Shown: piece after piece, positions 4,087-17,582 of the stretch
Layout: the number at the start of each line of letters is the position of its first letter
Numbering within the stretch: position 1 is the stretch's first letter
Origin: a virus
Lineage: Duplodnaviria; Heunggongvirae; Uroviricota; Caudoviricetes
DNA length: 46,006 bases
Strand: one strand, 5' to 3'
Virus record (IMG/VR): IMGVR_UViG_3300028886_000029
Location: 1 to 46,006 of that record
Notes under the pieces: model-generated
What the model was told of the DNA's origin: nothing
The model's input: the letters and a program-made list of their open reading frames with translations, nothing else
The model's database searches: none
Translations under genes and position numbers: made by a program

Positions 4087-4602
4087 TTAACTGGCGTAAG
4101 TTCCAAAGTAATTTTTAATAAAAACTATTGGTGTACCTTTCTGTCCTGAACCACTAACCAAATCGCAAAGTGACGCAATCAAATCCCTATATTGCCTTGG
4201 TGTGGTACCTTGTGATGTCATGTTTCCTACCAAATTATGGTTATTGTTTTCTTTAACCTCATTCCTAATGGCATCATCAAGTTCAGTACCATGTAACTCT
4301 TTATACTTATCATCGGCAAATGCCTTAATTTTAATCTCATTAGGTGTTGACTCAAATATTTCAGGGTCAGTATAAGCTGGCATTGTAATTGGGTCAGCAA
4401 ATTCATTGATGGAAGTACCTAAAATACCATTAATCATTGGACTATGGAAACAACCATCACCATATACACAAACAAGCACATTTTTTCCTGTAACAGTTTT
4501 AACCTTGTCCTTTATATCTTCACAAACTCTAACACAGTCCCTAATGTTGGGAAACAGTTTAATCTTGTCCTCAGTTGCTTTATTAGAACCTAAAACACCG
4601 TA
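4087..4602 (-). pseudogene. C-terminal fragment of a coenzyme F420-0:L-glutamate ligase-like protein
   Basis: Open frame YGVLGSNKATEDKIKLFP...VYGDG...ADP..PAYT...NLVGNMTSQGTTPR...SLCDLVSGSGQKGTPIVFI resembles the Firmicutes/Bacteroidota F420-ligase-like family. The N-terminal half is absent, and an in-frame TAG at 4612-4614 lies within the TnpB element end. Confidence 0.7.
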
Positions 4603-4753
4603 TATAGAAATCTAAGAAAAACTATGAACAATTCTTAGTTCCCATTTCTTGTTTCAACGAAACACTGCTTTTTAGTACCTCATTGCTGAGTCTGTCATCC
4701 ACAGTTGGTTTCTCCGCAAGCGTATATTCGGGAGTACGGCTCCCTATTATTCT
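4596..4753 (-). ncRNA. Putative omega-RNA scaffold of TnpB copy 1 (overlaps the tnpB 3' end)
   Basis: Established position of TnpB omega-RNAs; hairpin gggag-ccgta-ctccc; homologous orphan copy at 7358-7505. Confidence 0.7.
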
Positions 4754-5878
4754 TTCTCCTTCCTTTAAAATGTTAATCGCAGCATTCAAATCCCTATCAT
4801 GGTGCTCTCCACATTCAGGACAATCCCACAATCGTTCGTCAAGTGTCAGTCCCTTGTAAACATAACCACAACAGTGACAAGTCTTTGAACTTGCAAACCA
4901 TCGGTCAACTTCAATCACAAACTTGTTATTCAATATTGCTTTGTTCTTTAGTGTATTTTTAAATGCATAAAAACCAACCTCTTGTATTGCTTTAGATAAC
5001 TTATGATTCTTTAGCATCCCCTGAACATTCAGGTTCTCCATGAAAACATAATCATAATTTTCCAATAATGAATTGACAACACTGTGAACATAATCAATTC
5101 TTTGATTGTTTAAACGTTCAAATTCTTTTGCAAGTTTAACTCTTGCCTTGTTTCTGTTGTTTGAGCCTTTGGCTTTCTTGGACAATTGTCTTTGTAACTT
5201 TTTGATTTTGTTTTCACTTTTTTTAAAGAAGTGTTTATTTTCAAATACTTCCCCATCAGAAGTAATTACAAAATCCTTTACACCAAGGTCAATGCCAACT
5301 CTGTTACCTGTGTGTCTGAATTGTCTGAATTCTTCTTCATTCATGGATAAAAGGACAGATAAGTAGTATTTACCACTCTTGGTTTTCGATAAGGTAGCAC
5401 ACTTTATATTGTCCTTATAGGTTTTCAATCTATTGAAATATAAGTTTGAACAACGGAACTTCAGGTTTTTCAGATTTTTAGTTAAGGAGATATGTTTAGT
5501 TTTAAAAGTATTTGTTTTAGATATTGCTTCATAAGGGAACAATGCTGAATTGTCGTTGTGTTTGGTTTTGAATTTAGGAAACCCTTTACCAAGAGTAAAG
5601 AAGCCATCATAAGCAGACAACATCTGTCTTATTGCTTGTTTCATTACCTTGGTATTTTGTTCTTTCAACCAAGAATATTGTTCGTTTTTCAGTAGTTCTC
5701 CGTGAAAGAATTTTGATAATTCGCAAAGACCAACATTAGTTTTGTCCGCATTATAAGCCTTTTGTTTATGTGCAAGCATTTGATTATAGACAAATCGGTA
5801 GCATCCAAGCACTTTGTTAAGTGTTTGTTCCTGTTCCTTATTAGGATATAACCTTATTTTAACTGTTCTTAATATCAT
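4622..5878 (-). CDS. tnpB: RNA-guided endonuclease TnpB (copy 1)
   Basis: N-terminal LRTVKIRLYPNKEQ HTH; RuvC-I VGIDLG, RuvC-II VFMENL, Zn finger CHCC..CPEC, RuvC-III HDRDLNAAINI. All three catalytic acids are present. CTATTTAT upstream at 5913-5920. Confidence 0.95.
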   Translation of the reverse strand: MILRTVKIRLYPNKEQEQTLNKVLGCYRFVYNQMLAHKQKAYNADKTNVGLCELSKFFHGELLKNEQYSWLKEQNTKVMKQAIRQMLSAYDGFFTLGKGFPKFKTKHNDNSALFPYEAISKTNTFKTKHISLTKNLKNLKFRCSNLYFNRLKTYKDNIKCATLSKTKSGKYYLSVLLSMNEEEFRQFRHTGNRVGIDLGVKDFVITSDGEVFENKHFFKKSENKIKKLQRQLSKKAKGSNNRNKARVKLAKEFERLNNQRIDYVHSVVNSLLENYDYVFMENLNVQGMLKNHKLSKAIQEVGFYAFKNTLKNKAILNNKFVIEVDRWFASSKTCHCCGYVYKGLTLDERLWDCPECGEHHDRDLNAAINILKEGERIIGSRTPEYTLAEKPTVDDRLSNEVLKSSVSLKQEMGTKNCS

Positions 5879-6045
5879 TATCAAACAATGGGGTTTATAA
5901 CCCAATCCTTTTATAAATAGTTTATGTTTTGAAAAAATCTTGATTATTAAGACTTTTTCTTAGAATTTTATTTAACTGTTAATAACCCTGTAAGAGAAAA
6001 AATTGTTTAGAAGCCCCCAGATAATAAACTATTTTTTTTTTAAAA

Positions 6046-6408
6046 TAAACACAAACTTTACTACATCACTGCGACTGAGGAACCTCGGCTTTACGAGGAT
6101 TGCATTACCTTTGGAGTGTTTTACTTCCCTTTTAAACTACTTCAGATGCTGTACCACCTTTATTGATATTATCTCATTGGCCTCGGCAGAGTGTTTTTCA
6201 TCACTATCTCTCTTTACAAGGTTTTACCCACCTGTTGGCAAGGTGCATCTCTTAGGATTTATGTATTATGTTCCTAAGTACAAGATATGTCAGCATCCCA
6301 TCGGTTCGTTGTGGTCTCATATTACATGGACATATGTACACTATTCCATGCTATTACCTGACGCACTTGGCAAGGTTCTATGCTAAAAATAGAACAAGTT
6401 TGTGTTTA
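6046..6408 (-). ncRNA. ~360-nt structured RNA with group II (IIC-like) intron domain I-III hallmarks, lacking DV and RT
   Basis: Perfect 13-bp terminal helix (6046-6058/6396-6408); GTGCG at 6366-6362; CTGCC..TGGTACAG..TGAAGTAG..AGGGAA and GTCGCAG..TAGTA segments; boxA-like TTCTTTGACA immediately upstream. Confidence 0.5.
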
Positions 6409-6439
6409 ACTTGTCAAAGAAATGACAAGGAGGAAAAAA

Positions 6440-7216
6440 TTAATATATAAAAACTTCACCTTTTGCACTTCTTGGTGCTCTTGAACTAATTGAGCCACAT
6501 GGCGGATTTACATATGATTCAACAAAAGTAAATCTTGTTGGCTTTCCGCCATTGTTTTTGTATTTTTCACTATTTTTATGTAAATCAGTAAAATATTCCT
6601 GAGAGAAATCATTAAAAGTAGCATCAGAGCCAAATTCCATATCAATCTCTCCGTTTTTAGTTATATATTTTGGGTTTTCATTACCCTTTTTAAATAAAAA
6701 AGAATCTTGATTATATTTTTTTGACATTTCAATACCGAAATCATAAAGTTTATCTATTCCAAATACATTACCGTCAGTTGTTCTGTTATAGACCATAAAT
6801 GATTTCTCATAAACATTTTTTTCTGTCTCAGAACCAAGGTTTTCGATAAAACCACCATAAACCGGTGTATATGAAAGATGTTTTTTTCTTAGAATATTAA
6901 TAAAATCCTTCACTCTTTCGTTATTAATATGTTTGCTTTTTTCTTCAACATTGGGGTCATTAGGGTTAATACCTAATTCCTCAGGATTTGACCTACATGG
7001 ACTAATAACAATATAACCATTATCACTATGTCTTGCAAGCATCCTTTTGGCATTTGTTTCAGTTATTGGCACCAAATAAGAATTTTCTGAATAATGTGAA
7101 ACATTAATCCTTTCGTCAGAAGGAAATGACTTCCTGTTGTTTTCTTTTATTTCATTAAGCACAGTTTTTGTGCTTTCAAATATTATTGTTTTTAATTGAG
7201 ACTCAGTTATTTTCAT
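6440..7216 (-). CDS. Phage protein (DUF3293-like core), paralog of 16098-16775
   Basis: Shared IISxxxxP, G.F/Y..E.S.MVYN and KYNQD/ES motifs; N-terminal ITESQLKTIIFES leader. Confidence 0.75.
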   Translation of the reverse strand: MKITESQLKTIIFESTKTVLNEIKENNRKSFPSDERINVSHYSENSYLVPITETNAKRMLARHSDNGYIVISPCRSNPEELGINPNDPNVEEKSKHINNERVKDFINILRKKHLSYTPVYGGFIENLGSETEKNVYEKSFMVYNRTTDGNVFGIDKLYDFGIEMSKKYNQDSFLFKKGNENPKYITKNGEIDMEFGSDATFNDFSQEYFTDLHKNSEKYKNNGGKPTRFTFVESYVNPPCGSISSRAPRSAKGEVFIY

Positions 7217-7240
7217 TGTTTGTGGTGTTTAAAAATTTAG

Positions 7241-7312
7241 AGCCTCCTGTCGGAATCGAACCAACATCTACTGATTACAAATCAGTTATAATAACCTTTA
7301 TACTAAGGAGGC
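7241..7312 (-). tRNA. trnT: tRNA-Thr(TGT)
   Basis: Cloverleaf GCCTCCT..AGGAGGC; anticodon arm actga-tttgtaa-tcagt; TTCGATT T-loop. Confidence 0.9.
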
Positions 7313-7357
7313 ATGAAGCCATGATTTATAAGGAAAACCATGGCGAAAAACCATAAC

Positions 7358-7505
7358 CACCGTATAAAGAAACTTATAAAAACCTATAAGTTTCAATTTC
7401 TTGCTTCAACCTATCACTACTTTTTAGTGCCTCATTGCTGAGTCTGTCATCCATAGTTGGATAGTCCACAAGCGTAAATTCGGAAGTACGGCTTCCTATT
7501 ATTCT
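7358..7505 (-). ncRNA. Orphan omega-RNA-like copy of the tnpB1 3' end
   Basis: Aligns by eye with 4596-4753 (shared cctcattgctgagtctgtcatcc, TATACGGTG end) with no tnpB ORF; compensatory change gggag/ctccc to ggaag/cttcc. Confidence 0.75.
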
Positions 7506-7515
7506 TACCCCTTTG

Positions 7516-7605
7516 TGGAACCCATCGTATTAGGGAGTCGAACCCTGCTACTTGCATATTCGAAAACGCGCCCAAGGGGACCTTACTAACCGTTCAGGAT
7601 GTCTC
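7516..7605 (-). other. Atypical tRNA-like element
   Basis: T-arm aggg-TTCGACT-ccct present; acceptor and anticodon arms imperfect. Confidence 0.4.
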
Positions 7606-7650
7606 TTTTGTTAATATATAAATAAATGTAAAAAAAAAAACAAACTTTTT

Positions 7651-7854
7651 TTACTTCTTTTTCTTTTTTTCGTCTTTCAATGCGGTGATAATTATCCAAT
7701 TAAACGGAACCATAACCAAACCTACAATGAAAAAAACTAAAATACCCATTGGATAACCACTGACATATATGCCACATATTCCGGCAATATCTAACAATAA
7801 GATAAACAATGCCCACAATTGTAACTTGTATTTCTCAAAAAAATTTTTAAACAT
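7651..7854 (-). CDS. Small membrane protein
   Basis: Two hydrophobic helices, basic tail. Confidence 0.7.
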   Translation of the reverse strand: MFKNFFEKYKLQLWALFILLLDIAGICGIYVSGYPMGILVFFIVGLVMVPFNWIIITALKDEKKKKK

Positions 7855-8086
7855 TTTCTTCTTTCTTTTTTCTATTATTAAAATATTTTTTTATTTTGCT
7901 AATATACCATTTAATTACAATAACATCAAAATAAATTCCGAAACCTAAGAACGCAATACTTAATGGTAATGACCAAAAAAGACTTACTTTCTCAAGTACG
8001 AATAAATTGATAATCATCATCACAACTAATACATTGAAAAGAATTAAACCTATTGTTCCTATTATTGCCAATGCTTTTTCACCCAT
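7847..8086 (-). CDS. Small membrane protein
   Basis: Two hydrophobic helices; CTATTTAT upstream at 8116-8123. Confidence 0.7.
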   Translation of the reverse strand: MGEKALAIIGTIGLILFNVLVVMMIINLFVLEKVSLFWSLPLSIAFLGFGIYFDVIVIKWYISKIKKYFNNRKKKEENV

Positions 8087-8143
8087 ATTATACTCTAATT
8101 AAACCTTATTTACTAATAAATAGTTCATTTACCTAAAAATTTG

Positions 8144-8219
8144 GGAGTTATAAGAGATTCGAACTCTTTCCTTCAGAACCACAATCTGACATGCTTCGAC
8201 CATTAACACCAATAACTCC
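8144..8219 (-). tRNA. trnH: tRNA-His(GTG)
   Basis: tcaga-ttgtggt-tctga; encoded G-1 opposite C discriminator. Confidence 0.9.
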
Positions 8220-8233
8220 ATGTTAAAAATATT

Positions 8234-8373
8234 CAGAAAACATTACCACAGTTTTAGGACTCCAACCTTATCTTCTAATTTACATTAGATGTTTTTGCAA
8301 TTAAACTATTTGTCCTGTGGATTTGAAATGGCGGACAAAATTTAAAAACATAAAAATGTTGCTGTTAGTTTTC
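8234..8373 (-). ncRNA. ACAGCAA-motif element 1, enclosing a degenerate Tyr(GTA)-like tRNA body
   Basis: gaaaac-ta-ACAGCAA ... gttttc-TG; inner tctaa-tgtaaa-ttaga arm. Confidence 0.45.
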
Positions 8374-8386
8374 TTAATTTTATTTG

Positions 8387-8459
8387 TAGGGCCAACGGTA
8401 TTCGAAACCGTGTGATAGGAATGAAAATCCTATATCCTTGACCACTAGATGATAGCCCC
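8387..8459 (-). tRNA. trnE: tRNA-Glu(TTC)
   Basis: tagga-ttttcat-tccta; full cloverleaf. Confidence 0.9.
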
Positions 8460-8876
8460 ATAAAAAAAATACCTGTTTTGTTAATTTTCTTTGTTTTTGT
8501 TCTAAGAAGTGTACCAAAAAAACTCGCCACATGCCTGTGTTTATCCCTGTACAGGTGAACATACTCTAAAACATCACTCCTTCATGGGTCGAACAATTTT
8601 CTATAAACAACTAATTGTAATTATCCTTTATCTTAACATCATGCCTTCAATTAAGAGAATAATCCTCGATTAATAGTTCAGAAGGTTAAGTTTCCCTCTA
8701 TACCTATGTTGGCTCTTTTAACTGTTCTGCAACATCACAACAATCAGTATTGGTCAAGTATCAGGATTTGCACCAACTTTTTACAACCTTATTATAATAT
8801 ACAAAAATTAACTAGTACTTTTAAAATATTATAATTAGTTCTCCACTTGACTTCGAAGCCTCACAAGTGGTATACT

Positions 8877-8953
8877 TGGTGGAATAGACAGGATTCGAAC
8901 CTGCAAAATGACACCGTGCAAGGGTGTTGCTGTACCATTGAAGCCACTACCCC
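8877..8953 (-). tRNA. trnA: tRNA-Ala(TGC), CCA encoded
   Basis: acacc-cttgcac-ggtgt; ends ACCA. Confidence 0.88.
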
Positions 8954-9019
8954 AAAAATACCGCATTTACGGCAGTGCGGCCAGCCAAAACATACGCTCT
9001 TCGAGTGATGTTAATTTTA

Positions 9020-9128
9020 CAGGAAACATTTAACGTCCATAAGACGGGACGGATTTGAACCGCAAACCTCAAATTTTTGTATCCAAGAACAAAATTCTTA
9101 ATCCATGAAAAACTTGCTGTGTGTTTCC
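9020..9128 (-). ncRNA. ACAGCAA-motif element 2, enclosing anticodon-like and T-arm-like hairpins
   Basis: ggaaac-ac-ACAGCAA ... gtttcc-TG; inner ttttgt-tcttggat-acaaaa and gcgg-ttcaaat-ccgt. Confidence 0.5.
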
Positions 9129-10063
9129 TTAATAAATTTCTTAAATTCTTCTTCAACAAACAAAGGATTATACTTACCCATATCCTTTATGATGTATGGC
9201 TTATAACCCATTTTTATTATCTCTTCAATTTTTATTGAATCTCGTTTTTGAACTTGTTCTATAGAATGCTTTTCTGTAATTTTTTCATAATGCCATTTTC
9301 CGTTCCATAAAATCGCAGTTTTTATGTCTTCAATTATTACATCAGCATCCCAACCGTTAAACATTGGAACATTGTGTTTTACATCCTTAAAATATTTTTC
9401 GCATAGTTCGCAAAAATATTTTTCGTTTTTCGAACGCCTTTTATCTGCTTGAGATTTTGCAGAGTTTTTACCCGCATTTCTTAATTTTTCAATTGTTTCT
9501 TGTGACAAAAACTCTTTTTTATGCTTTTTTATCGTTTCGCTACACTCTTTACTACATACTACTTTTGTGGTACCTGGAAACAGAGTAGAATAATAATACG
9601 TTTTTCCGCAAACTTTGCATGTTCTTTTTTTCCTTTCTCTGTGTTTAACATCTTTTTTTTCTTCAAAATTTACTTGCTTATTTAGTGATTTATAATGTTG
9701 TTTTAAAGACTGCCTTATTTTTTCCTTTGTTTCGTCACTCATTGCATCTCTCGTAACATTATTAAAAGATGCTGCACATGAGTGAGAGCAAAAAAAATGT
9801 TTTGTTTTAGAATCATTATAAACATTTTTCTTGATTTCGAACTCTTTACCGCATTTTTCACAATAAACTTTAATTCTAGTTTTTTTACTTTCATAAAAAC
9901 AATCCATTGAGCAAAACTTACATCTACCACGAAGATTGTTTAGTTCGTGTGTAATAAGATTTTTTTGTACATAAAAAGTTTTTCCGCAGTGCTCACATTT
10001 AAGTGGCAATAAATCACTTGACTTAGATGAATTGTATTCTTCTTGTGTATATAAGGTAGTCAT
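9098..10063 (-). CDS. Putative free-standing homing endonuclease (multiple CxxC motifs + C-terminal PD-(D/E)xK/Vsr-like domain)
   Basis: Repeated CxxC/CSxxC; C-terminal WDADVIIEDIKTAILWNGKWHY; CTATTTAT at 10079-10086; inside the tRNA array. Confidence 0.7.
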   Translation of the reverse strand: MTTLYTQEEYNSSKSSDLLPLKCEHCGKTFYVQKNLITHELNNLRGRCKFCSMDCFYESKKTRIKVYCEKCGKEFEIKKNVYNDSKTKHFFCSHSCAASFNNVTRDAMSDETKEKIRQSLKQHYKSLNKQVNFEEKKDVKHRERKKRTCKVCGKTYYYSTLFPGTTKVVCSKECSETIKKHKKEFLSQETIEKLRNAGKNSAKSQADKRRSKNEKYFCELCEKYFKDVKHNVPMFNGWDADVIIEDIKTAILWNGKWHYEKITEKHSIEQVQKRDSIKIEEIIKMGYKPYIIKDMGKYNPLFVEEEFKKFIKETHSKFFMD

Positions 10064-10198
10064 AAAATTGTTTTTATTATAAATAGTCTTTTGTTGCGAA
10101 AAAAAGACTTGAACCTAAAAATATTTTGTTCTTAGGTTAGTTTGTTTTAATAAACAGGATACCACCACCTACTTGCAATGTGCAATTGTTTTCGGATT

Positions 10199-10270
10199 TG
10201 AGGTGACAATCGGAATCGAACCGACATCTCAGGCTTGGAGTGCCTTGAACTAACCGTTGTGCTCCACCCC
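10199..10270 (-). tRNA. Atypical tRNA (loop actccaa; Gly-TCC or Trp-CCA reading ambiguous)
   Basis: Acceptor GGGGTGG/TCACCTC and T-arm gtcgg-ttcgatt-ccgat; no U33 in register; 2 extra nt before the acceptor 3' strand. Confidence 0.5.
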
Positions 10271-10466
10271 GCAATATTTAAAAATAAACGATTTTAGACT
10301 AGATTCGTGAACCGTTTTTATGCTGAGAGCCATAGAAAATTTGCAACTTCTCTATGTTGTTACTTGAACGTGCGAATCCACAAACACACCGCTACCCAGT
10401 TGAAACCACCTAAAAAGTGTGTACACCACTTTCATCATCAATGATTACCTTTCAAGTATCTCTTTG

Positions 10467-10541
10467 TGGGAATGAAGGAATTCGAATCCCTGACCCTTTG
10501 AATGTAAGTCAAATGCTCTAAACCAACTGAGCTACACTCCC
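10467..10541 (-). tRNA. trnV: tRNA-Val(TAC)
   Basis: tttga-cttacat-tcaaa; canonical D arm. Confidence 0.92.
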
Positions 10542-10818
10542 AAAAATACGCCCATTTATTCCTCCATGTTGTCACAGTATGTTGTGAGGGACTTTTCACT
10601 ATATTAGCCCAATGCGACCTCTTTACGCTACTTCCGCACCTATATTTGGAATTAATGTTGCTTACCTACGCATACCCATCGCAAATTTTAACCACACCCC
10701 AGCCAAATACATTGCTCCAATCTATATTCTTCTTCTAATGTGGTTGACAGGAATAACCCAACAGGACTTCTTTCTATTGAAAATTCAAATTCTGCATACC
10801 TTAATGATAGAAAAATAA

Positions 10819-10877
10819 CAGGAAACATTTTTGTTTGAAAATGACAATTTCAATAAAATAATTTGCTGTATGTTTCC
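10819..10877 (-). ncRNA. ACAGCAA-motif element 3 with an Asp(GTC)-like anticodon stem-loop
   Basis: ggaaac-at-ACAGCAA ... gtttcc-TG; inner ttgaaa-TTGTCAT-tttcaa. Confidence 0.55.
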
Positions 10878-11285
10878 TAAAAAAATATCTAAAAAACTAC
10901 TTGATAGTACAAAAAAGATATTAACGGTTTAGCCACAACCATTTTTGTTTTGGCCAGTCCTCTACCTAACCGTGTAGGTTTTCCTTTCAACATCAAGAAT
11001 GGCTCATTCTATAGTGTGTTGGCTAAGGAAATATGCTAATCCCCAACAACTTCATTTTTCAAAAAACGGATGCATGTCAATCGTATTCCGTTATTCTGCG
11101 TTAACCTCACATGCCAAGGTCATATAGTCCACAACACACCCATATGACTAACTAGTATTTTCATTCTAAAAATTACTTAATAGAATATGAGCAGCCATTA
11201 TTATAATGGAACCAATAAAACAACTATTGAATTTCTGCTATTGTTTAGTTTCTAATTTTTCAACATTGTCAAATAACTTACATTG

Positions 11286-11293
11286 CAAATATA
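11286..11293 (-). promoter_or_regulatory. Bacteroidota sigma70-type -7 element (TATATTTG)
   Basis: Matches the TAnnTTTG consensus; also at 14672-14679, 17051-17058, 26026-26033 and 45549-45556. Confidence 0.65.
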
Positions 11294-11324
11294 TAAATAT
11301 TAATTGACAAAAACAAATTTTTTG

Positions 11325-11951
11325 TACTTCGGCTGCGACTCGAACGCAGGACCAACTGCTTAGCTTACCACTATAACTTTCGTTACCAATATAAGACTAA
11401 AAATGACCTACAGCACAAGAGGATTGCAGTCATTCCGTAACATCCCTTTTATGTTCCTCTTATTTCGGGTCTTTATATTGTTTGTGGTCTGGACTATCCC
11501 TTAACCATATTGAAATCTTGCAAGATTGGATTAGGGTTTGTTCTTACCCCGAATAGCAGGTCGCTTTCCTGCACAGTTTGTTTTAATTTTAAAATCCAAA
11601 TTTCAACTTAGGTTTCTTCCGTCTAGTCTCTACACACTGTCTATTACAAATACTGAAATGTAGCTTAATTGCATATATTTGCCTTCTATGCAATAACGCC
11701 TTTTCATTACATTCCCAATTAACACCTTTTGCAAACGAGGTGAGTATTTGTTTTTAACATTGGTTCGGTATTAGCATATATTAACAGGACTCTTCACCTG
11801 TCCGACTCATATAGAGTGTCTGATTTGATTTTATACTTAGCTTTCACCGAATTTGGAAGTTTCTACATCTAAAATTTCTTTTAGTGCACTCCTAATTAAT
11901 TGATTATCAATTACTTAAAGGCAGTTGCTCTATCCACTGAGCTACCGAAGC
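11325..11951 (-). tRNA. trnR: tRNA-Arg(TCT) split by a group I intron (exons 11951-11918 and 11363-11325)
   Basis: Spliced arm actgc-ctt|ctaa-gcagt; acceptor GCTTCGG/CCGAAGT. Confidence 0.85.
11364..11917 (-). ncRNA. Group I intron (554 nt) after U34 of tRNA-Arg
   Basis: P/Q/R/S-like cores aattcggtgaaag, aataccgaaccaa, gtagagactag, aagggatagtcc; U.G in P1; ends ...GTGGTAAG. Confidence 0.85.
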
Positions 11952-11974
11952 ATAAATAATATTTTTAAAAATTG

Positions 11975-12059
11975 TGCGTCCAATGGGACTCGAACCCATA
12001 ACGCCTTACGGACCCCTCTGATTAAAAGTCAGATGCGCTACCAATTGCGCCATGGACGC
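11975..12059 (-). tRNA. trnK: tRNA-Lys(TTT) with long variable arm
   Basis: tctga-cttttaa-tcaga; 85 nt in total. Confidence 0.85.
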
Positions 12060-12067
12060 TTACACAG

Positions 12068-12895
12068 TTAAATTATTCCATAATCAATAAGCCATCTTTT
12101 CACTGTTGTTGGGCTTACGGAATATTTTCTCGCAAGTCCTGCAAATGTTTTTATTTCTAAGAAATCATTTGCTAATGTTTCTTTTTCTGGTTTGTGTTTT
12201 ACGGTATCAAGTCTTTCTCTGTAACATGTAAGACAATAACCATGAACTGTCCTATATGCTAGTGGTTTACCACAACCTTTACAACAAGTTATTTCCTTAT
12301 TTGTTGCTATGTTTTTTCCACAAAAATTATCGGTCTGAGAATGACAGTTTGGACAGAGTATTTGTATATTGTCAATTGCATTATTTTGTTTATTTCCGTC
12401 AATATGATGCAATTGTAAAACAATTTTTTCACCCATCCACTCCGTAATACCACACCTTTCACATTTTCGCTCTTTTATCCCTTCCCTAAAAAGCCTCTCT
12501 TTAAATGTATAAAGATTTTGTTTATATCCGGAACCGTTCCTTTTTCTATTTGTTAGAGTATTAGTTCTTAGTTTCAAAGATATCTTTTCTTTTGTTTCGG
12601 TACTTAAGACTCTATTTTTATTATTAAAAGAAGCAGCACAAGACGATGAACAAAACTTTTTTTGCCCAGAGATTAATTCCTTACCACATTTAACACAATA
12701 ACGTTTTTTCTTTTCTTTATACCAACCAAAATCAAAACCAATTTCTTCTGCTACCTTATTGATATATCTTATATTTGCAGTATTGCTACAAACACCATAA
12801 TATTCATAAATTTCTTTTTTGGTAGAAAATGACTTGAATAGTTCATATACTTTATGTTTTTTATCATCATTACTTATATCTATAAACATAACCAT
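12068..12895 (-). CDS. HNH homing endonuclease
   Basis: CERC..QLHHIDGNKQNNAIDNIQILCPNCH; ATG at 12895 (the longer ORF-track frame overlaps tRNAs). Confidence 0.88.
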   Translation of the reverse strand: MVMFIDISNDDKKHKVYELFKSFSTKKEIYEYYGVCSNTANIRYINKVAEEIGFDFGWYKEKKKRYCVKCGKELISGQKKFCSSSCAASFNNKNRVLSTETKEKISLKLRTNTLTNRKRNGSGYKQNLYTFKERLFREGIKERKCERCGITEWMGEKIVLQLHHIDGNKQNNAIDNIQILCPNCHSQTDNFCGKNIATNKEITCCKGCGKPLAYRTVHGYCLTCYRERLDTVKHKPEKETLANDFLEIKTFAGLARKYSVSPTTVKRWLIDYGII

Positions 12896-12989
12896 TTTTT
12901 TATATAAATATACAGAAAAATGTGAAAAAATCAAGTTTTGAACTATAAGTTGTTCAAAAAAAAGAAAAATCACCATGCTCCAATATGAG

Positions 12990-13064
12990 CAGTCATAACG
13001 GGGTTCGAACCCGTAAATCTCCACCGTGACAGGGTGGCATGTTAACCAATTACACCATATGACT
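12990..13064 (-). tRNA. trnD: tRNA-Asp(GTC)
   Basis: ccacc-ctgtcac-ggtgg. Confidence 0.9.
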
Positions 13065-13074
13065 ATAAATTTTG

Positions 13075-13147
13075 TCGGGATGATACGACTCGAACGTACG
13101 ACCCCTTGGTCCCAAACCAAGTGTTCTACCAACTGAACTACATCCCG
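13075..13147 (-). tRNA. trnP: tRNA-Pro(TGG)
   Basis: cttgg-tttggga-ccaag; CGGGATG acceptor. Confidence 0.92.
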
Positions 13148-13152
13148 AAAAA

Positions 13153-13325
13153 TAATTAGTTTCTGTTCCATCTCTGCCAATGAATTCAACAAGAAGCCTA
13201 TGGAGTGGCGTTTTATTAGCGCGCCTTTCGATTATTACCACTCAGCAAGTGTAATGTGATTTTTTCCGGATAACCCATTACTCTAATGCCAACTATCACC
13301 CATCACTGGGATGTGAAACTAATTA
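13153..13325 (-). ncRNA. Candidate ~170-nt structured RNA
   Basis: 11-bp terminal helix taattagtttc/gaaactaatta continued by catc/gatg and ccagtga/tcattgg; internal gagtgg/ccactc. Confidence 0.45.
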
Positions 13326-13348
13326 ATTTATAAGTTTTTATCATAAAA

Positions 13349-13385
13349 TTTGCTACATTTTCAAAGGGTTTGAAAATGTAGCAAA
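13349..13385. terminator. 17-bp perfect hairpin (terminator or processing site)
   Basis: tttgctacattttcaaa-ggg-tttgaaaatgtagcaaa. Confidence 0.65.
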
Positions 13386-13400
13386 ATATGTGATAATTTG

Positions 13401-13527
13401 TCGGAAACCAAGGATTTGCACCTTGAACTGTGACACCCAATAATTTTATAACAGAATGTTGCTGTACATTTTTTTTCCAAAAAACGCAAATAAAAAAGTC
13501 ACCGTGTTACTGTTACACTAATTTCCG
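13401..13527 (-). tRNA. trnP: Second tRNA-Pro(TGG) interrupted by a 56-nt insert in the anticodon loop
   Basis: CGGAAAT/GTTTCCG acceptor; gtgac-ttt[56 nt]gggt-gtcac; T-loop tgcaaat. Confidence 0.7.
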
Positions 13528-13592
13528 AATTTTTTTCCGCGGTGAGACTGAGATTCGAACTCAGGGGTCGCTCATCACGACCGGCGGTTTTC

Positions 13593-14314
13593 CTTACCAC
13601 TATAGCTTTCGCTACCAAAACAAGAAACACAATTTATTCGAATGTCCCCACTTAACTGAGGCATAGTATTATCTAACTACGAAAACGTCTCTACAATTAT
13701 ACTCTACGCCAACCTGCATACTCACGATATATCGCTTTCATGTTCTCCGTAGTGTTTCCCCAACGTTTTGTGAGTGTTTGTTTTGTTTGTGGTCTGGACT
13801 CTATCTTAACCTTATTGAAACCTTGCAAGATGTATAAGTTTACCTCAGCACCTTCAAGCTTCGTATAAACGCATCGTGTCAATTCACTTCTTTAATTCTA
13901 GTTCCACTTATACAATTTCAACTTAGGTTCCTCCCATATCGTCTCTACACACTGTCTAAGGCACTGTAGGCTTTACTACACTTATTTTAAAACAACGGCA
14001 ATCTGTTGTTACCTTAACATTGGCTCGGTATTACCATCAGCATTATCTGTTAAGGTTTCACCGAATTAGGGAGGTTCTACATCTAAAATTTCTTTTAGCG
14101 CACTCAAATTACACATTGTTCAAGAGTATGAAATAAAATAGTAAATTATTTCTTTATAGTTAAAACTAATGGGTTAACTCCTAAACCCTCTATCCCATTC
14201 GCAAATGCGTTTGGGACTGCTTTTTTTCATAATATTATAACTGCCATTAACATCAGCGTTAACATATTTGTATTGTTATATATAAATAGTATGAAAAAAA
14301 TTGAAAATATTTTC
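13593..14314 (-). ncRNA. Group I intron (722 nt) after U34 of tRNA-Ser with enlarged P1 loop
   Basis: Same core motifs as the Arg intron; P1 cttgaa/tttgag closes about 200 nt downstream; ends ...GTGGTAAG. Confidence 0.85.
14146..14270 (-). pseudogene. tnpB: tnpB C-terminal remnant (omega-RNA-overlapping region) inside the intron P1 loop
   Basis: KYVNADVNGSYNIMKK[+1 A]AVPNAFANGIEGLGVNPLVLTIKK*, a RuvC-III NADVNG-type TnpB tail; CTATTTAT at 14282-14289. Confidence 0.75.
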
Positions 14315-14475
14315 AAGACCGCTGCATTAGACCACTCTGCCACCTCACCGTAAAATAAAGATTATTCTGAACTCTGTCACCATTAACGATTATTAAGAAA
14401 AGTCTTAATAATATTGTTAAACATCTATTCAATGCTACTGTCAGTTTTTTCTTTATTAAGAAAGTCACCATAGTA

Positions 14476-14582
14476 TGCTGAGAGTCGGATTCGAACCGAC
14501 AGTCATTATCAAAGGATAATGCAGGTTACTCGCCTGAACTGGGTATTACCCCTACGAGTCTTCCAATTCGCACCACCTCAGC
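14476..14582 (-). other. Atypical class II tRNA-like element with an extra hairpin
   Basis: GCTGAGG/TCTCAGC acceptor, canonical T-arm, long variable arm, extra gggt-aat-accc hairpin, non-canonical loop cgagtaa. Confidence 0.5.
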
Positions 14583-14714
14583 CTTCGTGACCATATTTTA
14601 TTTTCAATTTCACATATTCAATAAAATAATTTGTATTTATCAGTATTGTCAAAGAAATATTAATTTCATTGCAAATGTATAAATCTTTTTTTTTACAACA
14701 AAATTAATTTTTAG

Positions 14715-15341
14715 TTGAAGGCAGAGGAATCGAACCTCTATTCTGGGAACCCATACCACTATAGCTTTCACTACCAACTAGCATTCAATTGCAGGATGAT
14801 ATTTACCCACCTCTCATGGTTGGTGAAGGAACATATTGCTATATATTTATCCCGTTTACTGCAATTTACATTGTTTGTGGTCTGGACTATACCTTAACCA
14901 TATTGAAATCTTGCGCAAGTAGGAAGCATCAGTCTCTAAGTACTTTCTTATAAACTCAATCCTTATTGAAATAATATATATTCTTACGGATGTGGAATAT
15001 TACTCTTCTTCCATTTCAACTTAGGTTTTCTCCATCTAGTCTCTACACACTGTCTAAGTTTTACATGCTCCGTTTGCTACACCTTGCACAAAGAATTACA
15101 CTTTGTCCATATGTGGGAACTCGAATCCCCTGCAAAACTATAACATTGGCTCGGTATTAGCATATATCTCATCTGTTATATCCTCTCGGATAATCTCGTG
15201 ATTTACAATGCCCTCTCGGACAAACACACTCTTATATGATTACTTAGCCTTCACCGAATTTGGAGAATTCTACATACAAAATTTCTTTTGAAGCATTCGA
15301 TTTTTTCAAAATCCCATGTCTTACCTTTAGACGAGCCTTCA
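14715..15341 (-). tRNA. trnQ: tRNA-Gln(TTG) split by a group I intron (exons 15341-15308 and 14751-14715)
   Basis: Spliced tggga-tttt|ggt-tccca; TGAAGGC/GCCTTCA acceptor. Confidence 0.82.
14752..15307 (-). ncRNA. Group I intron (556 nt) after U35 of tRNA-Gln
   Basis: Same core motifs; P1 tttga/tcgaa with U35.G; ends ...GTGGTATG. Confidence 0.82.
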
Positions 15342-15413
15342 ATTTATTTCAAAGAACTGTTTCTTTTTATTTCAAAAATCGTGCCAAAATATAAATTTTA
15401 ACATTTTTTTTTG

Positions 15414-15485
15414 CGGGGACGCATGGATTCGAACCAAGATAGACGGATTAACAGTCCGCAGTAATAACCCTTATACGACATCCCC
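15414..15485 (-). tRNA. trnN: tRNA-Asn(GTT)
   Basis: gcgga-ctgttaa-tccgt. Confidence 0.9.
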
Positions 15486-15494
15486 AATTATAAA

Positions 15495-15731
15495 CTACTT
15501 TTCAGTAGTTTCAGTTGTTGCATCATTTACCACATCTTCGTTTTTTGGCATTGTGGCTGCTGTTGTAGGTGCGACAGAGTTCATTTTCTCATATTCCGCT
15601 CTCAACTTTTCAAGCCTCTTTTGTCTTGCCAACATAAGTCTCTTTTTCTCAATAAGACTGTTTCTAACATTTTCATTAGCGTCCCTTCTTGGGGTAAATG
15701 AATTTTTCTTTGTGTGTTTCTTTTTACTCAT
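15495..15731 (-). CDS. Small basic/coiled-coil hypothetical protein
   Basis: 78 aa ORF between tRNAs. Confidence 0.65.
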   Translation of the reverse strand: MSKKKHTKKNSFTPRRDANENVRNSLIEKKRLMLARQKRLEKLRAEYEKMNSVAPTTAATMPKNEDVVNDATTETTEK

Positions 15732-15758
15732 AACAATAAAATTAAAAAATAAAATTTG

Positions 15759-15832
15759 TACCCTCTCTCAGATTCGAACTGAGACTTCATAGATTTTGAA
15801 TCTATTCACTCTGCCAATTGGTGTAAGAGGGT
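15759..15832 (-). tRNA. trnL: tRNA-Leu(CAA) with short variable loop
   Basis: ataga-ttcaaaa-tctat; 74 nt. Confidence 0.8.
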
Positions 15833-15834
15833 AT

Positions 15835-16026
15835 ATTATATTGAGTTACTGGTCAGAAATTACCTACAGTTGAATATGACACCCATCGCCTTGGATAATA
15901 TTGTTGTTTGCGCAAATTCTTTCAATATTATCTGTACACCTATTGAATCCTGATGTATTTTCCTTTTCCCTGTAGCGTACTTCAGAAAATACCGATTCCA
16001 TTCCATATCTCCTCACTCAATATAAT
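15835..16026 (-). ncRNA. Candidate ~190-nt structured RNA
   Basis: 12-bp terminal helix attatattgagt/actcaatataat; boxA-like GTTCTTTGAA just upstream; no ORF. Confidence 0.4.
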
Positions 16027-16097
16027 TTTTCAAAGAACTATTATGTGTTTTACAAATATCATGCCAAAGGCATTAAAAAGACAAACAAATTTTAATA

Positions 16098-16775
16098 TTA
16101 TTTAACATTTTTGCCGTACAATTGACCTCTTTTAAAATATTTTGATTTACCTGTGCGAGTTGGTTCAAGACTTTCTGTTATAATTTTGTCTATATCAATA
16201 GTATCTTCTCTCAAAGCCAAATCATCATATATTTTCTTTACTTGTTCAAAAAAAGGTATTCTAAATTTAAAATGCTTGGATATTTGTGTATAGTAGTTGT
16301 CATCATCGGTAGCATCTACAATTTCATGCTCTTCATGTTGAAGTTTTAACTGTGAGTGCTTGTCATCACCTTCCCAATATTGGTATGAAACTTCTCCATC
16401 GTTTTGCATATCAACAAATATCACACTTTCTTGGTTATATTTGTAACATAGATAAAGTGTATCTTCAATAGTGATATTATATACCATTATAGAATTCTCA
16501 ATACCATCATAGTTACCTTTTACTTTAAAATATTTATAATGTCCAATACTAAGTTGTCTTTCTAATTCATTACTTGCTTGCTGATTATATTCTTTTTCAG
16601 CCTTATTACCCATAGGATTTTCTGCTGAAATAATAGCCATTGTTCTAACCCTACGATTAGTTCCTTGTATTGCTTGTTGTGCTTTTTGTCTGCGTGATGT
16701 TTCCATCATAACATTTTTAACACTTTTCTCTATTATATTTTTTAAATCAGTTTCAGTAAGAACTATTTCAGTCAT
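16098..16775 (-). CDS. Phage protein (DUF3293-like core), paralog of 6440-7216
   Basis: AIISAENP..VKGNYDGIENSIMVYNI..KYNQESVIF. Confidence 0.78.
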   Translation of the reverse strand: MTEIVLTETDLKNIIEKSVKNVMMETSRRQKAQQAIQGTNRRVRTMAIISAENPMGNKAEKEYNQQASNELERQLSIGHYKYFKVKGNYDGIENSIMVYNITIEDTLYLCYKYNQESVIFVDMQNDGEVSYQYWEGDDKHSQLKLQHEEHEIVDATDDDNYYTQISKHFKFRIPFFEQVKKIYDDLALREDTIDIDKIITESLEPTRTGKSKYFKRGQLYGKNVK

Positions 16776-16790
16776 AATTTCTTTTTTTTG

Positions 16791-16875
16791 TGGGAGTGGT
16801 TAGATTCGAACTAACTGTGTGTCATTGTGCTGGATTTACAGTCCAGTGCCCATCCACCATCTGAGCCGCACTCCC
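16791..16875 (-). tRNA. trnY: tRNA-Tyr(GTA)
   Basis: ctgga-ctgtaaa-tccag; long variable arm. Confidence 0.9.
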
Positions 16876-16956
16876 GTAATTAAATTCTTTTTGAATTTAG
16901 AAGTCAACGTATCTCATCTTCCTACGGTTTAAAAATCCGAAAAACATACGTGGTTG

Positions 16957-17039
16957 TGGGCACTGAGAGACTTGAACTCTCACGTCATTAAGACACATGC
17001 TCCTTAGGCATGCCTGTCTACCAATTCCAGCAAGCACCC
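16957..17039 (-). tRNA. trnL: tRNA-Leu(AAG)
   Basis: catgc-ctAAGga-gcatg; class II Leu body. Confidence 0.88.
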
Positions 17040-17249
17040 AAATTGTGTTGCAAATATATTACTATTTTTTTAAAAACCCAAATTTTTATGTACAAAAATA
17101 ATATTTTTCACATCAAAATCATCTGTGTAATTCAACACTTCTTTCAAAAATGTTTCCATTGTATAACCACTATGGTTTTTAAATTCTTCTTCCAACTGTT
17201 TATGATTTTCCAAAATATTATCCATAATCATTAAATTTTATGTTTTTTG

Positions 17250-17323
17250 TGGGCAAGGTAGAACTCGAATCTACGGTCTCTTGAATATCAGTCAAGTGCT
17301 TTAACCAACTAAGCTACTCGCCC
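17250..17323 (-). tRNA. trnI: tRNA-Ile(GAT)
   Basis: cttga-ctgatat-tcaag. Confidence 0.92.
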
Positions 17324-17336
17324 TTATTTTATTTTG

Positions 17337-17419
17337 TGGGCACTGAGAGACTTGAACTCTCACATCACGAAGGATACATGCTCCTAAGGCATGCGTGTCT
17401 ACCGTTCCACCAAGTACCC
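17337..17419 (-). tRNA. trnL: tRNA-Leu(TAG)
   Basis: catgc-ctTAGga-gcatg; paralog of 16957-17039. Confidence 0.92.
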
Positions 17420-17425
17420 ATTTTG

Positions 17426-17499
17426 AGTTTCAGGTGAGATTCGAACTCACGGATGTCAGTTTTGCAGACTGATGTGTTAAACCACTTCACCACTGAAAC
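17426..17499 (-). tRNA. trnC: tRNA-Cys(GCA)
   Basis: tcagt-ctgcaaa-actga. Confidence 0.92.
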
Positions 17500-17507
17500 A
17501 AATTTTG

Positions 17508-17582
17508 CAGAAGCGGAAAGATTCGAACTCTCATCAGGCAACTTTGGAGGATGCTATGCTTAACCATTTACACCACGCTTCC
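17508..17582 (-). tRNA. trnW: tRNA-Trp(CCA)
   Basis: gcatc-ctccaaa-gttgc; GGAAGCG/CGCTTCT acceptor. Confidence 0.85.

Follow-up and report, generated by a model that had tools for sequence, protein, structure and literature searches.

The 46,006-nt window analyzed here, positions 1–46,006 of IMG/VR virus record IMGVR_UViG_3300028886_000029, encodes a non-coding RNA of 363 nt on its minus strand (6046–6408). The source record is 363,317 bases long, has 33.5% GC content, is rated 100% complete and represents a jumbo phage. The RNA very likely belongs to an uncatalogued structured family that forms an optional part of the cargo of gut jumbo phages. The best overall explanation, with a probability of about 0.65, is a stand-alone, non-coding, folded RNA of this family that resembles the phage RNAs ROOL and GOLLD. 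Homologs establish the family, its helices, a modular variable domain, four genomic settings and optional presence, and the RNA occurs in rumen RNA data. An initial annotation, made from the sequence alone, had described the segment as group II intron domains I–III (DI–DIII) without a catalytic domain V (DV), sealed by a terminal helix.

RNA family and its occurrence

Eleven distinct homologous sequences of about 245–400 nt were identified, all in gut phage-like contigs, several of which are 345–394 kb in length. The first members were found by motif search (L029, a 96% relative; L028/L071; L069; L072). A covariance model was built on the 5′ core of these members and applied to loci reached through neighboring proteins. 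Six members unseen by the model, reached only through neighboring proteins, scored 136 (L214), 88 (L215, partly masked), 90 (L234), 127 (L235), 128 (L238), and 78 bits (L239). Core identity between clades is 54–80%, and each genome searched has one copy.

The members occupy four settings. The window, L029, L071, L235, L238, and L239 carry the RNA in tRNA arrays, and it directly follows a tRNA in L071 and L239. L069 has it behind a small membrane-protein-like gene, L072, L214, and L215 have it in a terminase module, and in L234 it stands alone with a terminator. The genes upstream of it are not related from one member to the next. In L213, whose neighbor protein is 88% identical to that of L072, the RNA is missing exactly from stop codon to terminator. 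In L216 (11377–12117) and L217 (11496–12104), a GmrSD_N-domain gene takes the place that the RNA has in related phages. The same ligase gene is shared by four complete or near-complete phages besides the window's own, one of which carries the RNA.

BLAST against phages and plasmids gave no match. Nothing relevant came from Rfam scans that covered the window together with seven homolog loci, and Rfam families searched against the window up to E = 10 gave chance-level matches only. The family model found no copy in 150 genomes of Bacteroidales-type order and 149 of Clostridia-type class, with 19 candidates scored per genome and no positive control. Core words of the RNA had no match in the literature searched; the anonymous candidates of a 10,000-candidate phage RNA survey (PMC10690425) were outside this comparison.

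Fourteen RNA runs, drawn from cattle and sheep gut in 8 studies, contain the stretch, with RNA contigs spanning approximately 6059–6422. In three of four runs, from three studies, contigs match the RNA (X4, 6061–6410; X6, 6059–6374; X8, 6080–6422) and the adjacent genes are uncovered; missing cover on tnpB and the upstream 258-aa gene is no evidence that these are silent. The contig limits hint weakly at a discrete, stable RNA, and several diverged members of the family occur in these runs too.

Secondary structure and covariation

The RNA body is closed by P1, a perfect 13-bp helix in which the 5′ strand (6408–6396) pairs with 6058–6046, the 3′ strand being followed by a T/A run. P1 was identified by folding and covariation: 7 of 11 pairs show two-sided changes among homologs, and the helix sequence differs again in L234, L238, and L239. 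The single-sequence signal is modest (folding z = −2.1), and the genome holds 7 perfect inverted repeats of at least 13 bp with arms 200–600 nt apart. The RNA is nevertheless more than a chance repeat because its closing-helix pairs change on both sides in homologs. The earlier view of a stand-alone RNA sealed by a terminal helix, rather than a broken intron, is supported. P1 is probably a processing stem.

The conserved unit reaches further 5′ than had been annotated. A covarying 7-bp leader hairpin (6429–6410, minus strand; 2 two-sided changes) carries the previously noted boxA-like word, at 6421, across its loop. The hairpin is found in five tRNA-array or operon copies and is absent in L072 and L234; the same boxA-like word lies ahead of other tRNA genes in the genome. 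The leader may act in antitermination.

Inside P1, the alignment of homologs defines the P2 hairpin (6375–6395), which varies in length, and a 5′ core domain (6281–6369). There P3 (6369–6366 with 6284–6281) and P4 (6362–6358 with 6293–6289) enclose the P5 hairpin (6351–6325) and P6 (6314–6312 with 6300–6298). Two-sided changes affect 4 of 5 pairs in P4 and one of the pairs counted in each of P3 and P6. The P5 loop contains the palindrome UGUACA (6335–6340), a candidate self-kissing loop. It reads UGUACA in the window, L029, L071, L069, and L238 and UGCGCA in L214 and L215. In OLE and GOLLD, true kissing bridges were marked by such covariation of adjacent bases within a palindromic loop (PMC12286853). 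The P7 hairpin (6251–6278), also defined by alignment, has a conserved AU-rich loop.

The most conserved element is an irregular core duplex with a 2-nt bulge. Its 5′ strand (6232–6245) contains the second CUUGCCAA copy; its 3′ strand (6077–6067) runs into a conserved tail, the whole 3′ segment covering 6059–6077. All 9 pairs form in each of 8 aligned members, two of them with two-sided changes, and the duplex is the best inter-strand fold in 8 of 8 members tested. L238 has both strands rewritten together as a plain Watson-Crick helix, which confirms the pairing and indicates that the bulges are not essential in every member. The duplex carries a variable domain (6078–6231) of about 40–160 nt across members, which opens with a GNRA-capped hairpin near 6221–6211. 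Variant forms in the RNA runs skip most of this domain. Pairing of 6317–6313 with 6084–6077 and other pseudoknots are possible.

With five members aligned, 20 of 51 pairs showed two-sided changes, compared with 7.4 in shuffles and ≤4 in slid registers. With eight aligned, the 22 core pairs were formed in all 166 cells and 9 changed on both sides. This level of covariation was reached in 0 of 500 shuffles, slid registers were 24–47% paired, and members added later brought new compensatory changes. G-U wobbles, GNRA loops, the boxA-like word, and tRNA orientation all indicate the minus strand.

Relation to group II introns

The sequence words on which the group II reading was based are all present on the minus strand: the hairpin at 6395–6375, cttgccaa|GTGCG at 6374–6362, GTCGCAG at 6075–6069, and TAGTA at 6063–6059. 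The run assigned to subdomain Id comprises CTGCC (6189–6185), TGGTACAG (6156–6149), TGAAGTAG (6144–6137), and AGGGAA (6130–6125). Both acct-tgccaa words exist, at 6376 and 6244, and the second acct..aggt hairpin drawn from them is broken in L029, L071, and L069.

Their assignment to intron domains does not hold among homologs. GTGCG had been taken as the intron 5′ end; GUGCG is found in 2 of 11 members, the supposed splice site falls inside P3, and its first G is paired there, as is the supposed exon. An optional 83-nt insert holds the Id words, and an Id-like stretch is present in 2 of 11 members. A pattern of these words gave 16 matches in viral contigs, all chance matches in coding DNA, and other short patterns searched gave mainly chance matches. 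The supposed start of DIII (6059–6077) pairs with the upstream core strand instead. A fold of this 3′ word as a GNRA hairpin like the tip of domain II (DII) in group IIC introns was considered and dropped, as L214, L234, and L238 show the upstream-strand pairing.

For direct comparison, a hidden Markov model (HMM) was made from 21 real IIC DI–DIII regions. Held-out IIC introns scored 119–213 bits and five members of the phage family gave no hit. The reciprocal family HMM scored IIC introns below 0 bits, and the family covariance model found nothing at 19 IIC loci. None of the 21 IIC introns has the Id or DIII words. The hallmarks of IIC DI (theta hairpin, Ic lambda/epsilon′ loop, and DI closing word) are found in 18–21 of the 21 introns, and the five phage RNAs have none of them apart from one short word in L069. 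Among Rfam group II models, RF02001 did not match at the RNA locus, nor did RF01998 (DII–DIII), for which the best match (E = 9.45) lies elsewhere in the genome. A DII–DIII arrangement with J2/3 and a hairpin DIII was not found in the RNA. No complement of the supposed exon end that could serve as exon-binding site 1 (EBS1) was found, even for 4 nt.

As initially reported, DV, domain VI (DVI), and a reverse transcriptase are lacking. RF00029 gave no match at E ≤ 10, and PF00078 (RVT_1) none, anywhere in the complete 363-kb record. The search for a DV acting in trans was thus negative for that record, a host-encoded DV being outside it. A circularly permuted intron would need D5–D6 upstream of D1 (PMC8637638); a protein gene or tRNA lies there, with no RF00029 match. 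No splice-like or circular joint was seen in the RNA contigs, which cannot exclude one.

Descent from group IIC DI–DIII, with DV lost or supplied in trans, is therefore largely refuted and highly improbable. Every cited word is indeed present in the window copy, the DII tip of 3 of 21 IIC introns is identical to an 11-nt word in the 3′ motif, and rearranged forms of group II RNA are known (PMC8637638). However, that 11-nt word changes in L214, L234, and L238 along with its upstream partner strand, and the model searches, the poor conservation of the supposed splice site, and genome content all speak against an intron origin. Compared with group IIC and permuted group II introns, the phage RNA shares a few short words in the window copy and a hairpin upstream of GUGCG, and lacks a conserved 5′ splice site, hallmarks, EBS, flanking DV/DVI, and profile similarity. 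Word-level likeness to group II introns was misleading here.

Optional insert

The 83-nt insert (6127–6209, minus strand), defined by presence and absence among members, is cleanly absent in L239 with matching flanks and is shared only by L069. The RNA runs also contain forms that skip it. Besides the Id words it holds a stem (6187–6178 with 6156–6148) that resembles the lower stem of s2m (RF00164; weak Rfam match, E = 1.2). Twenty insert bases in two blocks are identical to the s2m lower stem of coronavirus and astrovirus records and are kept in L069. Judged by these sequence words, the insert appears to form the lower stem with its seven-nucleotide bubble. The s2m three-purine bulge, base quartet, and pentaloop (PMC539059) are absent from the insert, which has an unrelated AU-rich stem-loop instead. 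Over the whole viral collection, only three unrelated coding families match the s2m pattern by chance, so a match within one 360-nt RNA is unlikely to be accidental, although this match was singled out among 4,227 families. A recurrent structural motif is the simplest reading.

s2m is described in positive-strand RNA viruses only, according to a survey (PMC3653767). It is a 3′ end element in astro-, calici-, picorna-, and coronaviruses, whereas the s2m-like stem described here belongs to a DNA-phage RNA and lies in a module that is internal and optional. The insert represents either a recurrent RNA motif or an unexpected tie to a viral element with unknown origin. A 9-nt direct repeat flanks the s2m-like stem (6114–6122 and 6189–6197) and may mark how the insert came or goes.

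Proposed role and alternatives

We propose that the RNA is co-transcribed with the tRNA operon downstream of a boxA antitermination leader, or forms a transcription unit of its own. Excision at the P1 duplex would then release a stable molecule of ~350 nt, by analogy with the processing stems of ribosomal RNA operons. Such transcription and excision are likely. The RNA would then fold into a rigid core, and most members may dimerize or oligomerize through the palindromic P5 loop; this step is put forward tentatively, at slightly less than even odds. Covariation of the palindrome is suggestive only. The abundant RNA could serve during infection as a decoy or scaffold for host RNA-binding proteins, such as anti-phage ribonucleases or translation factors, a role usually given to phage tRNA arrays. 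We favor this role only weakly, on the grounds that the RNA is optional and stable, lies with tRNAs, and has no partner genes.

Several points weigh against this explanation. Few sequences were aligned, and they are related to one another, which makes shuffle counts overstate significance; the structure, too, was derived from these sequences. In run X1, coverage is even over the entire region. This stretch itself served to select the runs, and strand, ends, and level cannot be read from contigs. L072 lacks the palindrome, L239 has no clear one, and L234 lacks P5 altogether. No partner gene accompanies the RNA among members.

Among alternatives, an unlikely one is a new phage RNA class with its own fold and activity. 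It would be a ribozyme or else an assembly made of RNA only that differs from ROOL and GOLLD, and its insert would share ancestry or a binding partner with s2m. If true, this would provide the first bacterial-phage handle on the binding partner of the s2m lower stem. The irregular core duplex, with its 2-nt bulge, AGU run, and A-A mismatch, could be the active site of a ribozyme resembling an upside-down DV, perhaps acting on tRNA precursors. It bears the strongest sequence conservation, and related phages have tRNAs with unexplained insertions, yet L238 has a plain Watson-Crick helix in its place. Moreover, the run is AGU rather than AGC or CGC and lies 4 rather than 5 pairs from the bulge (PMC8637638), strand order is reversed relative to real DV, and no guide-like complement to phage tRNAs exceeds 9 nt. 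We consider such a ribozyme quite unlikely.

A selfish mobile RNA that inserts between genes and does little harm when sealed by P1 would fit the four settings, the other cargo in the same slot of L216 and L217, and the empty site of L213, a close relative of L072, where the stop codon abuts the terminator and P1 bounds the missing stretch. Deletion across an inverted repeat accounts for that site equally well, though, and with one copy per genome, no linked reverse transcriptase or endonuclease, and no conserved target site seen, a mobile element is improbable. A cis-acting element, such as a 3′ untranslated region or an operon processing or stability signal, is also improbable, and we rate it marginally lower. 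The RNA does start within ~35 nt of the upstream stop codon in the window, L069, L072, and L214, and no promoter match lies just upstream of it in the window. However, upstream genes are unrelated, the RNA follows a tRNA in L071 and L239 and is alone in L234, and the RNA contigs stop at its borders. The stand-alone, ROOL/GOLLD-like RNA remains the preferred explanation.

Genomic setting

In the window, the RNA closes the downstream end of an array of 16 minus-strand tRNA genes (7240 to 17582) and lies between a 258-aa gene and a TnpB gene. The last of the co-oriented tRNA genes is tRNA-Thr(TGT) (7240–7312, minus strand). The 258-aa gene upstream of the RNA (6440–7216, minus strand; function unassigned) is not linked to it, because no RNA adjoins the homologs of this gene, P0002 and P0003. 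A 127-aa plus-strand open reading frame at 6003–6386 was rejected as a gene; it has only 84 aa in L009.

The TnpB gene (4622–5905, minus strand; Pfam match) is a neighbor outside the RNA element. It lies downstream on the same strand, about where the initial annotation placed it, with its ATG at 168 nt and an in-frame TTG at 141 nt. It adjoins the RNA only in the window's strain group and in none of the other ten members. Its slot holds tRNA-Ser and other genes in L009, L030, and L032–L035. TnpB is an incidental neighbor, because close, near-identical strains carry tRNA-Ser where the window has tnpB, and constant tnpB linkage, as for a TnpB-associated guide or end RNA, was not found across family members.

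In the region 4087–5985, the tnpB element has removed tRNA-Ser and an SprT-like gene, as well as the greater part of a 381-aa F420-ligase-like gene, of which 130 aa remain at 4087–4479. L032:7350–10759 shows a fuller IS607-type element (MerR/resolvase plus TnpB) that splits the same ligase-like gene. A separate copy of the TnpB 3′ end and guide-RNA scaffold lies at 7391–7510 (minus strand), is 87% identical to 4644–4754, and is covered by RNA contigs in runs X1 and X6; it is possibly a second guide for the phage TnpB. The adjoining segment 7510–7580 (minus strand) is GC-richer and has a tRNA-like T-loop word, with no ARAGORN or Rfam call. Two zinc-finger/HNH endonuclease-like genes (9098–10063 and 12068–13192) lie within the tRNA array.

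Related loci have further features. In L235:1–410, a bacterial fragment of 60% GC (nusB- and tsaD-like by eye) meets phage DNA of 30% GC at the leader hairpin, which is either an assembly chimera or an integration site. Downstream of the RNA, at 1030–1130 in L238 and immediately 3′ in L239, both loci have the same further non-coding word, which may represent another small, conserved RNA. The tRNA array of a related phage encodes a transfer-messenger RNA (tmRNA; L071:1129–1505), and none was called in the window's genome. Three tRNA genes (L069:992–1158, L071:5212–5367, and L071:4421–4538) have insertions of ~45–90 nt in the anticodon arm. Two of them, probably tRNA-Thr, start with the same six bases, and the insertions can be likened to the unexplained tRNA introns of Lak phages (PMC6784885). 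At about 335310–335620 of G000 (L219), a tRNA-Leu-like gene contains an interruption in which group I intron R and S words can be read by eye; it had no Rfam match at gathering score.

Comparison with known RNAs

RNase P RNA (RF00010, with P4 consensus) did not match the RNA, and its control was positive in 11 of 14 genomes. The tRNA-like ends and tag frame of a tmRNA were not found, and L071 has a separate true tmRNA. Species 1 and 2 of the phage T4 tRNA cluster are stable RNAs of about 120–140 nt with tRNA-like ends. They resemble the present RNA as stable RNAs without assigned function from a phage tRNA operon. By description, the only basis of this comparison, the present RNA differs in being larger and having no tRNA-like end.

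ROOL and GOLLD adjoin phage tRNA islands (PMC12286853). ROOL (RF03087) is likewise a large structured phage RNA of the rumen, often near tRNA islands, with no known partner protein (Kretsch et al. 2025, PMC12286853), and a candidate symmetric kissing loop is predicted here from the palindrome. ROOL assembles into RNA-only oligomers by kissing loops, for which the palindrome would be a candidate counterpart. ROOL is ~580 nt, compared with 245–400 nt here, and its helices differ; RF03087 had no match in Rfam scans, and one further search, without positive control, was also negative. GOLLD (RF02032) is also a phage RNA of tRNA arrays with a conserved and a variable part, but it often exceeds 800 nt, and RF02032 gave no match up to E = 10.

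The present RNA is smaller than other large phage RNAs, with a natural form of 245 nt in L029. Natural variants add, drop, or rebuild whole domains, empty sites are natural too, and the RNA is in many rumen RNA data sets. These traits make it readily accessible to structure work. To our knowledge, few large phage RNA classes have been described, and none of those in tRNA arrays has an assigned function. The family provides a handle for asking what such RNAs do; it resembles the ornate phage RNAs ROOL and GOLLD in setting and build and belongs to neither.
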